Assembly (NCBI GenBank): GCA_036930585.1
Contig: GCA_036930585.1_3066.1
Direction: 5' to 3' (one strand)
DNA from: a phage
DNA length: 64,000 nt
Below are positions 30,003-39,643 of this stretch, piece after piece. A program made the translations under genes and the position numbers. Below the pieces are notes generated by a model. The model worked only from the letters and a program-made list of their open reading frames with translations, did not search any database and was not told where the DNA came from. Every line of letters begins with the position of its first letter. Position 1 is the stretch's first letter.

Positions 30003-30581
30003 TTAATTACCGCGGGCCGCATTAGCGACGGCGTAAGCGTACTGAACATTAGCGTCTTTAAACGTACCTTTAGAGGTATCTATTTCTGCCTTAAAGCCAC
30101 CTTTAGCCATAACATCGGCAAATTCTTTACGGAAAGCCATTGCATCAAGACCTTTCCATGATGATTTATGCTTGGCAAATTCAAGACCAGCGTAGTTGAC
30201 AGCTTTAGCTAATTTATTATCAATAACCCATTTACCGGCTTTAGGCACAAACTTCGGGCCTTTTTGTTTAGAGAACAGTTTTAAATTCCAGCGACGAAGA
30301 TCACTGTCGGCTTTAACAAAAGCTGCATCTAAGTTACTAGCAACAACATCTTCAATATGAGCAAATTTGAGTCCGTCAACTTCAATATTTAGATCGTTAC
30401 GCCAGCGAAGTCCTTCCCAAGCAAAGGCTTTAAAATCAGAAGCCTTTGTAGCTAAGTACCGTTCAATAGGAGCAGTTTTAGGGTCAAAGCCGTTTCCGCC
30501 ACGATAAGTCCACTCGTCCTTATTAATGCCTTGAGCTTTTCCTGCAAAGGCCTCGGCGATAAATTCTTTATACGTTTTCAT
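30003..30581 (-). CDS. ipIII: internal protein III-like (capsid-targeted)
   Basis: 192 aa; N-terminal MKTYKEFIAEA capsid targeting sequence; adjacent to e. Confidence 0.8.
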   Translation of the reverse strand: MKTYKEFIAEAFAGKAQGINKDEWTYRGGNGFDPKTAPIERYLATKASDFKAFAWEGLRWRNDLNIEVDGLKFAHIEDVVASNLDAAFVKADSDLRRWNLKLFSKQKGPKFVPKAGKWVIDNKLAKAVNYAGLEFAKHKSSWKGLDAMAFRKEFADVMAKGGFKAEIDTSKGTFKDANVQYAYAVANAARGN

Positions 30582-30670
30582 TTTTGTTTCCTTTAAATAT
30601 TTTAATTGGTAATTGTCTATTCAAGTAATTGTGAATATACTATCACAATTCTAGGAGAAAGTAAATAACT

Positions 30671-31165
30671 TTATAGATTTTTATACGCGTCCCAAGTGCC
30701 AGTTCTAAACGTAGCAATGACTCGTTTTGCGCGGTTAGGTGTTTGATTATACCATCTACTTTTAGCTAAGTTAACTGCTGCTTCATCCCAGCGTTTTTGC
30801 TGGAGCATGCGTAAAGAATTAGTAAATCCTGCTACACCGGTTTCCCCCATTTGGAAGACCATGTTAATCAATGCACAGCGGCGAACAGCATCAAGAGAAT
30901 CATAAACTGGTTTTAATTTAGCATTTCTCAGAATTCCGCGAACAGCAGCATCAACATCCTGATTAAAGAGTTTTTCGGCCTCATCTTTTGTAATTACACC
31001 ATTACAATTACGCCCAATAGCTTTATCTAATTCAGATTTAGCAACACTTAGTGATGGACTTTTAGTAAGCAAATGACCGATGCCAATAGTGTAATAGCCT
31101 TCTGTGTCTTTATAGATTTTAAGTCTAAGACCTTCATCTATACGTAACATTTCAAATATATTCAT
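30671..31165 (-). CDS. e: T4-type lysozyme (endolysin)
   Basis: 164 aa; near-identical to T4 lysozyme by recall. Confidence 0.97.
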
Positions 31166-31202
31166 AATACCTCCTAAGTGTTTATAGAAGGTATTTATAA
31201 AA

Positions 31203-31658
31203 TTAAAAGAGGTTGTTCATTATTCGGTAAAGTGAAGGACCCATCACATATTGCCACTGAGTACGAGGAATAAGAGCAAAAGCGTCCATCTCTGGAATCA
31301 TAACACCATCTTTATTTTCAAAATAAGACTCGCAATGGCAATTTCTAAACATCTCATGCTCTACTGGAATCGTATAATAAAATAACTGTAAGTCTTTATT
31401 ACTAGAATATTTAAATACACCTAGGTCTTCTAGAAGGTCTGGATTATAATTGCTAAAACCAGTCTCTTCTAAGCATTCTCTTCGTGCTGCATCTAGTGTG
31501 CTTAAATCAGAATTTTCTACACGGCCCTTTGGAATATCCCAACGATGTGCCATCATTCCAGGCTTACGAGAACCAGTAACCCGACCCATAAATAAATCTT
31601 TATCTTCTGTCATGAAGATAATACCAGCTGATAATGTTTTCATTTTAATTTCCTGCAA
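31203..31658 (-). CDS. nudE: Nudix hydrolase NudE
   Basis: Nudix box ...[10 protein letters not shown]; position next to e. Confidence 0.8.
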
Positions 31659-32002
31659 TCACTCACAAACTCTTTCATTGATTCATTTTCAATATAAGAC
31701 ACGTAGTTGTTATATTCTTTTAATTGTATTTTGTAATCCTTTTTTCTTTGCCAATTTATTTTAAAATTATCATAATGAAAATATAACATAATACCAAAGA
31801 ATGAAAATAATGAAATAATTTTAGTATAGTGAAGTTCACTCCAAACTTCTATTATATCTACTGTGCCGTCGATGTTTAAAATAAGACAGTCAATTAACAA
31901 TCCAAAAAGACTACCCGCAAGAGCTGCAGCCAACGCTACAGCAAAAATTAAAAATGACTCAGGAAGCGAATATTTGACTTTATTTAGTTTTGGCTTTTGC
32001 AT
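31640..32002 (-). CDS. membrane protein (multi-TM)
   Basis: 120 aa with hydrophobic segments. Confidence 0.5.
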   Translation of the reverse strand: MQKPKLNKVKYSLPESFLIFAVALAAALAGSLFGLLIDCLILNIDGTVDIIEVWSELHYTKIISLFSFFGIMLYFHYDNFKINWQRKKDYKIQLKEYNNYVSYIENESMKEFVSDCRKLK

Positions 32003-32397
32003 CGTGATTCCTTAACAAATTTCATAATTTCATCAAATTCATATGCAGCAATTTTAAGCTGGTGTTCCTTTTTAATCTTTTTGCACTGTGCTTTCCAATC
32101 ACGTACGCGTTTACGATAATGTCTTCCTTGATACCAGTATCCTACCCAATTTACGGGTACTAATAAAAATGGAACTACAAATGGAAGAATTAATACGAAC
32201 AAAAATATTACGCCAGATTCAATATCAGTCATAAAGTCTATAACCATTCCAACAATCAATAGAATTACAAATGATATAGCTGTCACAGGACCTATTAATA
32301 TATCAGTAGGAATTAGCTGGCGCTTTAATTCATACTTCACAGGTTTACTTGGAAGGTATAGTGATGGCTTTGACATATTCTCTACATTCCTTAACAA
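31984..32397 (-). CDS. membrane protein (multi-TM)
   Basis: 137 aa with hydrophobic segments. Confidence 0.5.
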   Translation of the reverse strand: MLRNVENMSKPSLYLPSKPVKYELKRQLIPTDILIGPVTAISFVILLIVGMVIDFMTDIESGVIFLFVLILPFVVPFLLVPVNWVGYWYQGRHYRKRVRDWKAQCKKIKKEHQLKIAAYEFDEIMKFVKESRCKSQN

Positions 32398-32950
32398 ATT
32401 TTTCTAATAATAAATCGCTTTCAAAATTAGGATTTTCCACGAATTTATCAAAAAGATCATCAACAATAGTTAAGATATTCTTTTTGCTAAGAATACGTTT
32501 ATTTTCATATTTTGTTTCAGAGTCAACTATAAGAGTAAAGAAATATTTCTTTCCCTGAAATTTTACCGTAGTATCAATATAAAATAAATTTGACTTTTGT
32601 AAATTACGTTTAAACCATGCGTCACTTAAACTATAAACGCCAAGATAATCATAATCGTCATTTAAATAACAAACTGTCCATTCAGGAGAAATGAAATCAG
32701 TAAATTCAACATCAAAATCACATGTCAATGAATGAATTGATTCAATACTTTTAATGAGTATTCCAGGACGTATTAAAGACTTTTTACCTTTATAAAATCC
32801 AGAAAGACTTTCATCAGTTTCATATGAAGACCCCCAATAGTAATTACGTCCTTCTGCCATACGTTTAAGAGCATTTAGTAATTGATCTGGAACATCAACC
32901 TGTCTTTGGAACTCTTCAAACATTGAATTGAAATCACTTTGCATTTTCAT
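32345..32950 (-). CDS. hypothetical protein
   Basis: 201-aa ORF. Confidence 0.55.
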   Translation of the reverse strand: MKMQSDFNSMFEEFQRQVDVPDQLLNALKRMAEGRNYYWGSSYETDESLSGFYKGKKSLIRPGILIKSIESIHSLTCDFDVEFTDFISPEWTVCYLNDDYDYLGVYSLSDAWFKRNLQKSNLFYIDTTVKFQGKKYFFTLIVDSETKYENKRILSKKNILTIVDDLFDKFVENPNFESDLLLEKFVKECREYVKAITIPSK

Positions 32951-32970
32951 TCCTATTTACTCCAAGTAAT

Positions 32971-32986
32971 AGGGGCCGAAGCCCCT
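32971..32986 (-). terminator. hairpin aggggc-cgaa-gcccct after ORF 32992..33585
   Basis: inverted repeat; weak T-tract. Confidence 0.45.
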
Positions 32987-32991
32987 TATCA

Positions 32992-38431: not shown

Positions 38432-38433
38432 TA

Positions 38434-38832
38434 TCAGCCTTCATCAACAATAGTGTGAGTATTAGCATTTACGATTTGCCACCAATCAAAGCGATTAGAA
38501 TCCATCGGTTTGTTTTCATTTTCTTTGATAATGTCACGGAGTTCATCTTCAGAGAATGCTTTAGCGATTAAATCGGTATACCCACCACGTGGATAATAAT
38601 TATCACCTGCAAACAAAAGGAAATTTACCTTCCCGGAAGGAACATACGCTTCCTTAGGATACTTGTTTCCTGCGTGGTCAACCACTTCAATATAACGGTA
38701 AGGAATATCGGTTCTTTCAACCCATTGCCATGCCGCTGCAGGGGAATCGAAAGCATCTACACCTAAACGATTATCTTCATCTTTAGACGGATTATTTTCG
38801 TAATCCGCATATACATAATATTCAACGTTCAT
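38434..38832 (-). CDS. hypothetical protein
   Basis: 132-aa ORF. Confidence 0.5.
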   Translation of the reverse strand: MNVEYYVYADYENNPSKDEDNRLGVDAFDSPAAAWQWVERTDIPYRYIEVVDHAGNKYPKEAYVPSGKVNFLLFAGDNYYPRGGYTDLIAKAFSEDELRDIIKENENKPMDSNRFDWWQIVNANTHTIVDEG

Positions 38833-39017
38833 TATTCACCTTTAGAAATTTTATCCATAACAATAGCAATTAAACCAATTAAAAATGCTACTACAAGTGA
38901 AAACACATTTTCTGCTGTAGTCAATAATCCACATATAAATCCAACAAACATTGAAAAACTAAAAGCGGAAGCAGAAATTGCAATAGCAACATTTCGAATT
39001 AATTCACAACGTTTCAT
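38832..39017 (-). CDS. small membrane protein (2 TM)
   Basis: 61 aa, hydrophobic. Confidence 0.5.
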   Translation of the reverse strand: MKRCELIRNVAIAISASAFSFSMFVGFICGLLTTAENVFSLVVAFLIGLIAIVMDKISKGE

Positions 39018-39045
39018 TTTATTCTCCTCAGTAGTAGATAGGGTA

Positions 39046-39075
39046 ATAGTATCACTACCCTATCTAAAAGTAAAC
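39046..39075 (-). promoter_or_regulatory. early-type promoter: GTTTAC, 18 bp, TACTAT
   Basis: motif read on minus strand. Confidence 0.6.
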
Positions 39076-39309
39076 TTATTTTTTACGAAAAATTGATTTA
39101 TTTTCTGCTGCCCATTTTTCAATAACTGCAGCAGGACCAGTAACAACAATTTTATCACCGTAATCTTCTGCGGCGAGTTGACCGAAATTATCTAATGCAT
39201 CACGAAGAACTCCATGAGGCATTTCACCCATTTTATCTTTCTTGCCAGTGTAAATAAACTCAACTTTTACATCAGCAGTTTCAGCAATAAATTCTTGGTA
39301 AGTTTTCAT
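39076..39309 (-). CDS. ipI: internal protein I-like (capsid-targeted small protein)
   Basis: N-terminal MKTYQEFIAE capsid targeting sequence; next to 57B as in T4. Confidence 0.6.
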   Translation of the reverse strand: MKTYQEFIAETADVKVEFIYTGKKDKMGEMPHGVLRDALDNFGQLAAEDYGDKIVVTGPAAVIEKWAAENKSIFRKK

Positions 39310-39343
39310 TTTGATTTCCATTTGGTTTTGTTTTGATAGGGTA

Positions 39344-39373
39344 ATAGTATCACAACTAAAACCCTATGTAAAC
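39344..39373 (-). promoter_or_regulatory. early-type promoter: GTTTAC, 18 bp, TACTAT
   Basis: upstream of the ipI-like gene. Confidence 0.6.
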
Positions 39374-39385
39374 AACTTTGTGAAA

Positions 39386-39643
39386 TTATTTTAAATCTTC
39401 TAATCGTTTCTTCATCTTAGAACCATTTTTAGCAATTTCTCCTGCATCGGAGCATAATGCTAAAAGTGCTTTAACTTTAGTTTGGTCTCCTTTAAAAGAT
39501 GAAGGATCGACCGCAGCAGCAAGTTCTTTAATACGAGAGAAAAGACGCTCAGCTTCAGCTAAAGCCATTCCAAGCTTTACTTCCATACCGTGGGAAGATT
39601 CAGTGATAGTAGTTTTTGTAGCAAACTCTTTGAAAGTTTTCAT
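39386..39643 (-). CDS. internal-protein-like small protein (degenerate targeting sequence MKTFKEFA)
   Basis: 85-aa ORF with own promoter. Confidence 0.5.
   Translation of the reverse strand: MKTFKEFATKTTITESSHGMEVKLGMALAEAERLFSRIKELAAAVDPSSFKGDQTKVKALLALCSDAGEIAKNGSKMKKRLEDLK

Follow-up and report, generated by a model that had tools for sequence, protein, structure and literature searches.

Candidate internal head proteins at three loci of a T4-like phage, including an unlabelled protein family next to e.8

Five leader-bearing genes in a T4-like region

A 64,000-nucleotide stretch of phage DNA (contig GCA_036930585.1_3066.1 of assembly GCA_036930585.1), referred to here as the window, was analyzed for genes whose products begin with a capsid-targeting sequence (CTS), the N-terminal leader of the T4 internal proteins (IPs). 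The window belongs to a Tequatrovirus with ∼96% identity to the phages L14, UTI-E4 and Bas37. The region 29000-41200, which contains all genes discussed below, aligned to Escherichia phage L14 with 92% coverage and 96.5% identity, and similar values were obtained for UTI-E4, KarlGJung (Bas37) and many Tequatrovirus genomes. On the minus strand the gene order is T4-like: 1, 57A, 57B, the ipI slot, trna.4-.2, the tRNA cluster, rnaD/rnaC, e.8...e.2, nudE, e, ipIII and vs.8.

A preliminary description of the window, made from the letters alone, had reported five open reading frames (ORFs) with a CTS-like N-terminus. All five were recovered at exactly the same coordinates, all on the minus strand, and were labelled A (30581..30003), B (35114..34551), C (35713..35240), D (39309..39076) and E (39643..39386). 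They are the sole occurrences of the motif MK[TS][YF]x[EQ]F in the six-frame translation of the window, whereas in 200 Markov-1 random sequences the motif was found with a mean of 0.015 and a maximum of 1. Three looser versions of the motif yielded no additional ORF in the window. When the strict motif was applied to the complete T4 genome, it identified ipI, ipII and ipIII and one extra gene, 61.1. This gene (NC_000866 18966-19130, minus strand; outside the window) encodes a hypothetical protein of 54 aa that starts with MKTFKEFIKED, a leader of perfect capsid-targeting type with an IKE cleavage-like site. The 61.1 protein is not a known IP, and its gene was non-essential in the transposon screen HIDEN-SEQ (13/13 sites hit).

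The N-terminus had been interpreted as the T4 CTS, and the leader ends agree with this, with [LI]xE at residue 10 in A-D and an IPI-type ITE at residue 15 in E. The sites predicted for the prohead protease gp21 are IAE10 in A (leader MKTYKEFIAE, followed by A), LTE10 in B (MKTYAEFLTE, followed by A) and IAE10 in D (MKTYQEFIAE, followed by T). C has a double leader, MKSYAQFLNE, then AVLNE, then A, with predicted sites at LNE10 and LNE15, and the leader of E (MKTFKEFATKTTITE, followed by S) has its predicted site at ITE15. For comparison, the leader of T4 IPII and IPIII is MKTYQEFIAE followed by A (IAE10) and that of T4 IPI is MKTFKEFTSTTTPVSTITE followed by A (ITE19). In T4, 10 residues suffice for packaging, including that of foreign proteins (work of Black, reviewed in PMC9026906), and Mullaney and Black assigned residues 4 and 7 to targeting and residues 8 and 10 to processing (summarised in PMC9026906). 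Aromatic residues at positions 4 and 7 and the [L/I]-x-E leader end are present in all five ORFs.

Shine-Dalgarno-like AGGA/GGAA sequences are located 8-12 nt upstream of A, B, C, D and E. For D, the mechanically listed ORF begins four codons earlier (MEIKMKTY...) and lacks a Shine-Dalgarno-like site at that position; the start at 39309 (MKTY, 77 aa) is also the RefSeq choice. The predicted mature proteins A-E have molecular masses of 20.2, 19.6, 15.6-16.1, 7.4 and 7.5 kDa and pI values of 9.6, 9.5, 9.4-9.5, 6.5 and 9.2, respectively, so that mature A, B, C and E are basic, with B and C at about 9.5 as in the T4 IPs. From these leaders and from T4 genetics, we infer that all five proteins would be packaged and cleaved in this phage.

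Ip3, Ip5 and Ip6 at the two known internal-protein loci

A (192 aa, mature 182 aa) is ipIII (Ip3), with a match to phrog_5341 at E 8e-118 and 92.7% identity to T4 IPIII across 192 aa. D (77 aa, mature 67 aa; phrog_8111) is Ip6: the depositors annotate it as ip6, 246 phage records match it, and Bas37_0260 is 100% identical. E (85 aa, mature 70 aa; phrog_3499) is Ip5. It is 100% identical to Ip5 of RB15 in the 1994 record Z35082.1 ('Ip5, Ip9, Ip7, Ip8', between 57B and tRNA.4) and to bas37_0261, 98.8% identical to an ORF of T2, and matched by 497 phage records. D and E are not novel but are Ip6 and Ip5, named in 1994, the same proteins as in the RB series and T2 (records of Repoila et al. 1994; Bas37_0260/0261). 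The annotation of A, D and E should read Ip3, Ip6 and Ip5, and the earlier designation of the non-IPIII genes as lineage-specific had to be abandoned for D and E.

A, D and E have the leader, the gp21 cleavage rule and the two genomic positions in common with T4 Ip1 (IPI*), Ip2 and Ip3. Compared to T4, the ipI slot contains Ip5 and Ip6 in place of IPI, and ipII and denV are missing. No homologue of either was found in the window by tblastn; the preliminary description had likewise seen no such ORF between regB and e. The homologue of vs.8 (29282-29937, minus strand) was matched by T4 vs.8 in two frames (29937..29818 at 82% and 29833..29285 at 87%), and its ORF encodes 180 aa compared to 219 in T4. 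With denV and ipII, which come next after vs.8 in T4, absent here, the vs.8 region looks like a deletion joint or a frameshift. Slots of related phages hold other genes as well. The ipII/III slot of related loci (L005/L006 8280-9383, L004 and L013) carries other leader-bearing ORFs of 86, 93, 105 and 157 aa, and variants of 69, 74, 87, 90, 97, 102 and 103 aa are found in the ipI slot of related phages. An Ip5-like mature domain (48% identity, in a 93-aa protein) occurs with an IPII-type leader at the ipII/III locus of other phages; therefore, these domains move between loci.

The proposal that every one of the five genes has an early promoter of its own was confirmed for A, D and E. In their upstream regions, GTTTACA or ATTTACT is separated by 17 nt from TACTAT or TAGTAT, which has TG in front of it, and an inverted repeat spans the promoter. 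For A, the early-type promoter with its embedded stem-loop is located at 30627..30668 (minus strand; ATTTACT, 17 nt, TAGTAT; arms AATTGTGA/TCACAATT), and a terminator-like hairpin directly follows the gene (29983..30000, minus strand). D and E are each preceded by a 71-nt promoter/stem-loop cassette on the minus strand, which for D (39331..39401; GTTTACA, 17 nt, TACTAT) overlaps the 3' end of E and for E (39662..39732) overlaps that of 57B. The element occurs once more at 39033-39103, upstream of trna.4. All three copies in the ipI slot overlap the last codons of the preceding gene, and therefore 57B and Ip5 both end with ...EDLK. Upstream of E the sequence is identical to the T4 ipI upstream region, and upstream of A it is near-identical to the corresponding region of T4 ipIII. 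In the cassettes of T-even IP loci and in RB49/phi1, with its PeSLs, repeated regulatory elements likewise bracket small genes and supply recombination joints (PMC2839356, PMC4122927).

For T-even phages it is textbook knowledge that diverse injected IPs act against restriction, and later experiments have extended this. T4 Ip1, Ip2 and Ip3 each block their own GmrSD type IV enzyme, which for Ip3 is the two-gene GmrSD system of ECOR17 (PMC12373910; an earlier hint is found in Srikant et al.). Bas37_0260, which is identical to D, is specifically required against McrBC of E. coli K-12 (HIDEN-SEQ preprint, 10.1101/2025.11.20.689424). The earlier idea of injected anti-restriction effectors is thus backed by published work for the T4 orthologue of A (GmrSD) and for the protein identical to D (McrBC); no link to a defence system was found for B and C. 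The same results correct two further points of the preliminary description: the targets of the non-IPIII members are not all unknown, since that of D is McrBC, and IPIII is no exception without an effector role, since T4 Ip3 inhibits a GmrSD variant (PMC12373910).

For Ip5 the evidence comes from the HIDEN-SEQ tables, in which insertions in bas37_0261 were ∼4-fold lower on strain CFT073 (log2FC -2.09, adjusted p printed as 0.00000), with no drop on CFE299 or CFE303. The upstream neighbour 57B was also down on CFT073 (-1.56), and a regional effect is possible. CFT073 encodes the GmrSD homologue c5421, and Ip5 probably has a role similar to those of Ip3 and Ip6 in some hosts.

B and C at a third locus before e.8

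B (187 aa, mature 177 aa) and C (157 aa) are unannotated CTS proteins; B is 100% identical to bas37_0243 and C is 96.8% identical to bas37_0244. Alignment with T4 showed that both genes lie in a 1.2-kb insertion (35755..34542), exactly between the rnaC terminator and the e.8 promoter region. At its left end is the terminator hairpin of the rnaC/tRNA operon, AGCCCCGACCGAAAGGTTGGGGCT with a T-run (35764..35787, minus strand). Directly after this hairpin and 44 nt before the ATG of C is the octamer TATAAATA (35750..35757, minus strand), the T4 late-promoter consensus. A second, identical copy of the AGCCCCGACCGAAAGGTTGGGGCT hairpin (35209..35232, minus strand), which belongs to a 40-nt repeat family (D1), is located between C and B and is followed by the box of B, AATAAATA (35153..35160, minus strand), 46 nt before its ATG and with one mismatch to the T4 late-promoter box. 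The right end of the insertion is formed by a terminator-like hairpin after B (34524..34542, minus strand), which differs from AGCCCCGACCGAAAGGTTGGGGCT.

No early-type promoter is present upstream of B or C, so that for these two genes the proposed early promoters are replaced by a terminator hairpin and a late-type box. In this respect the locus is unlike the T-even and PeSL cassettes, since its repeated elements are terminator hairpins followed by a late-type box and not early promoters. Conversely, TATAAATA was not found within 160 nt of T4 ipI, ipII or ipIII. Because the TATAAATA octamer is common by chance, the late-promoter call rests on positional conservation. The first gene in each of 14 related loci has the same series of elements in front of it, a hairpin, a T-run and a box located 34-48 nt from the ATG; the box is perfect in 12 of these loci, including those of distant phages and genera with diverged flanks. 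The AATAAATA box at -46 is kept in all three other loci with B (L006, L007 and L013). This arrangement points to B and C as putative late-promoter genes and not early cassettes.

Full-length matches to phrog_2280 ('unknown function') were obtained for B and C, at 2e-53 and 2.1e-60, respectively, and 19/19 aligned members of the B family match it too. An exhaustive HMMER search with B alone returned a single distant relative, and a profile search identified a family of 190-218-aa proteins in IME281, KIT01, AnYang, CLB_P2, EcS1, Enterobacter KMB17 and others. B is matched by 165 phage records, C by 512, and a tblastn search with the 205-aa form added 144 more from Escherichia, Enterobacter, Klebsiella, Serratia, Kosakonia, Erwinia and Aeromonas phages, three sets that may overlap. 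The 144 records are all hypothetical, and for B and C every sampled row reads 'hypothetical protein' (for example RB32ORF132c/133c).

Apart from their N-termini, the five proteins had been described as unrelated. By BLASTP this is correct, and the alignment of B and C is limited to the leader; as full-length phrog_2280 proteins with a common architecture, however, B and C do not fit this statement. With hhalign, the B and C families aligned with 95.5% probability when the leader was included and with 36.8% (E 3.6e-4) without it, in the latter case over the C-terminal helices only. B and C are probably, not certainly, homologous beyond the leader. In most members, a Pro/Ala/Lys-rich linker of 30-50 residues is followed by one of two C-terminal domains. 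The leaders vary in length and end with [IL]xE just before a conserved AG(V/E)RMTKxKW, and [LI]xE leaders are retained in homologues that are only 20-30% identical. In Klebsiella and Yersinia phages, C-type homologues have the N-domain joined to another C-domain, and their leaders are variable (MKFKEFLAE, MLEYSEFLKE) but retain [FL]xE; compared with these homologues, B gave no significant match.

The position of the family is as conserved as its leader end. All 10 T4-like loci from IMG/VR (10/10) have a leader-bearing ORF just upstream of e.8, which is of C-type, of B-type, or of a 205-aa B-type that shares the leader MKTYNEFLNESVLNEA with some C-types. In Karamvirus-like genomes (L014-L017), the family gene immediately precedes the e.8 homologue, PF26879, and the family occurs at the same position in Dhakavirus, Mosigvirus-like, Karamvirus, Klebsiella, Serratia, Kosakonia and Aeromonas phages. 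B and C can therefore not be called lineage-specific either. In T4, profiles of both sub-families found no phrog_2280 member among the six-frame ORFs. Pfam and NCBIfam scans of A-E and the 19 B-family members gave only sub-threshold coiled-coil noise. PHROGs has no functional label for phrog_2280, and its leader, its late-box/terminator context and its e.8-adjacent position were not found in annotations or literature. This third locus with terminator/late-box cassettes adds to the 'two IP loci' of the literature, and no description of it was found in the accessible literature or annotations. It is concluded that B and C are probably unrecognised members of the capsid-targeted internal-protein kind; the rest is mostly known biology.

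Structure prediction, which had been suggested as a check for each protein, gave all-helical two-domain AlphaFold2 models for B (pLDDT 79.9) and C (pLDDT 72.9), with the leaders at low confidence. Both models begin with a small three-helix domain, which a disordered linker (PK-rich in C) connects to a helical hairpin in C and to a three-helix C-terminal bundle with pLDDT of about 90-96 in B. Neither model had a meaningful match in the PDB: Foldseek returned nothing at E <= 0.001 and only generic ferritin-like helical bundles, and a B-family profile searched against PDB sequences found only an occludin coiled coil (E 0.008).

The neighbourhood of the third locus also differs from that of T4 in several genes. 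The tRNA cluster (36468-37415, minus strand) has 10 genes (Arg, His, Asn, Tyr, Met/Ile-CAT, Thr, Ser, Pro, Gly and Leu), compared to 8 in T4, and an Rfam search of 34000-38200 found these ten tRNAs and nothing else. It is followed by an ORF for an HNH-type homing endonuclease of 210 aa (37422-38054, minus strand), whereas in T4 the GIY-YIG gene segB is located inside the tRNA cluster. Between tRNA-Arg and the rnaD/rnaC homologues lies an ORF of 116 aa (36099-36449, minus strand) that has no T4 counterpart there; its Bas37 homologue, bas37_0245, is non-essential.

Transposon data and possible roles of B and C

In the HIDEN-SEQ screen of Bas37, bas37_0243, which encodes a protein identical to B, was hit at 1/48 TA sites and called 'Essential' (Extended Data Table 7, HIDEN-SEQ preprint). 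Its mean counts were 0.2 in every condition, its neighbours were 85-100% saturated, and the main text of the preprint does not mention it. The other genes were hit at most sites, i.e. 29/34 in the C orthologue, 23/23 in e.8, 15/15 in Ip6 and 18/18 in Ip5, and in T4 24/24 in ipI, 22/23 in ipII and 42/46 in ipIII. The Bas37 copies of C, D and E thus tolerate insertions, as do T4 ipI-III. A further group of genes to be considered is formed by hoc, inh, segE, uvsW, segC and wac, which are late-transcribed in T4. The screen calls these genes essential too, although according to its authors they are known to be dispensable and locus-dependent effects are possible; the description of the transposon gives its acrVIA1 no terminator and is silent on a promoter (10.1101/2025.11.20.689424). 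Since the dispensable hoc and inh were also scored as essential and in view of the authors' caveat, essentiality of B at face value was downgraded. A late-only, terminator-insulated unit such as B could simply fail the selection in the screen. On that reading, the data favour late-only transcription of B over essentiality, and they suggest that HIDEN-SEQ has a systematic blind spot for late-only regions.

The same screen draws attention to the homologue of e.6 (32992-33585, minus strand; 197 aa), which is 98.5% identical to bas37_0240. Insertions in bas37_0240 were ∼90-fold depleted on the uropathogenic E. coli (UPEC) strain CFT073 (log2FC -6.49, adjusted p printed as 0.00000; HIDEN-SEQ supplementary table). 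The gene is unmentioned in the available main-text passages, in which the tag itself was not searched for, and the e.6 homologue is a candidate anti-defence gene.

Taken together with T4 genetics, the leaders and the organization of the loci make it probable that all five genes encode T4-type internal head proteins in three cassette loci, with B and C made late at the third. The leader, of roughly 10-15 residues with Y/F at position 4 and F at position 7, would route its protein to the prohead's scaffolding core, and gp21 would cut the leader off after [LI]xE. The mature protein would then remain with the packed DNA and be ejected into the next host. Loci 1 and 2 correspond to the known ipI and ipII/III positions with Ip3, Ip5 and Ip6, each behind a repeated early promoter/stem-loop element, and Ip3 and Ip6 inhibit GmrSD and McrBC, respectively, as published for an orthologue and for an identical protein. 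Locus 3, which extends from the tRNA/rnaC terminator to e.8 and is empty in T4, has the order terminator hairpin, late-type box, gene and terminator hairpin. Given this build, B and C are expected to be made only late and would therefore reach the next host solely via the virion. By analogy to Ip1, Ip2, Ip3 and Ip6, B and C may be injected proteins that act at DNA entry, which we put forward only tentatively; a structural or DNA-handling role inside the head is conceivable but on balance doubtful.

Several observations weigh against this interpretation. TATAAATA is not rare in the AT-rich window, with 13 occurrences observed compared to 11.3 expected, and the box of B has a mismatch. D is acidic to neutral, unlike the classical IPs, and the literature yielded neither virion proteomics nor N-terminal data on any of B-E. 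Searches of the literature with the locus tags of B and C homologues gave nothing usable either. The function of B and C is argued by analogy only, because no similarity to solved structures or Pfam families exists, and the 'Essential' call for the protein identical to B does not fit a dispensable effector.

This last point leads to a different explanation, in which B, and perhaps every phrog_2280 protein, would be made late and be essential in the head core or for DNA handling, for example in correct prohead assembly, DNA condensation or ejection, with the CTS as a mere assembly ticket. The single hit in bas37_0243 among saturated neighbours would be expected from such a protein, especially as T4 ipI-III were fully dispensable by the same method. 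Also in line with it are the near-universal occurrence of the family at one fixed position, its own late box, the basic Pro/Ala/Lys-rich linker in most of its members and the confidently predicted C-terminal bundle of B. Proteins that are loaded into the head are known from T4 (Alt, gp67 and gp68) and from phage P1 (DarA/DarB/Hdf); of these, Alt and Dar are injected, and gp67, gp68 and DarA/Hdf are essential for head shape. None of them resembles B or C in sequence or fold, so that they are only precedents for an essential or structural internal protein. Against a universal structural need, the T4 genome has no member of the family and is fully viable, and several T4-like loci have only the C type, the Bas37 copy of which is dispensable. 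Moreover, the screen gives the same label to the dispensable hoc, inh, segE, uvsW, segC and wac, and an insulated late unit could fail a selection that depends on an acrVIA1 described without terminator or mention of a promoter. We therefore regard an essential head-core function as unlikely. A related version, in which phrog_2280 forms a third class of internal proteins (late, two-domain, almost universal in Tevenvirinae and missing from T4) and B is truly essential, which would make it the first indispensable T-even internal protein, is judged to be rather improbable.

The model of the preliminary description, in which the non-IPIII genes are lineage-specific injected anti-restriction effectors with unknown targets and their own early promoters, agrees with D and E insofar as both belong to the hypervariable ipI locus and follow early promoter cassettes. 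McrBC is counteracted by D, and the loss of fitness of E insertions was seen only on CFT073, the strain with c5421. The model is in part already refuted by the promoters and the distribution, and as a whole it is very unlikely, since B and C have no early promoters and belong to a widely conserved family, the target of D is known, Ip3 is itself an effector, and the hundreds of phage records that match D and E include T2 and RB15. Still less probable is a reading in which recombination left B and C with their CTS-like N-terminus as a relic, the leader DNA being a shuffling joint and the products late cytoplasmic, unpackaged proteins. For this speaks that the leader-coding DNA is a 42-44-nt repeat common to the cassettes, that the leader MKTYNEFLNESVLNEA occurs on both C-type and 205-aa B-type proteins, and that T4 61.1 carries the motif without being a known IP. 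However, the targeting and cleavage residues are kept at 20-30% identity in leaders of differing length, which indicates selection on the peptide and not on the DNA, and in T4 ten such residues are enough for the packaging of a foreign protein.

Of all phage proteins, the internal proteins are the first that host defences encounter, and all four that have been characterised (Ip1, Ip2, Ip3 and Ip6) block type IV restriction of modified DNA. They help to set the host range of therapeutic T4-like phages. B is flagged here because its apparent essentiality in a published screen went uncommented. If B were indeed essential, the need for it would lie in head assembly, in DNA delivery or in countering a defence that is common to E. 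coli K-12 even after removal of its restriction systems, and the absence of the phrog_2280 class from T4 would explain why it has been overlooked. As leader-bearing proteins, B and C provide a testable function class for a family that has so far been labelled hypothetical.

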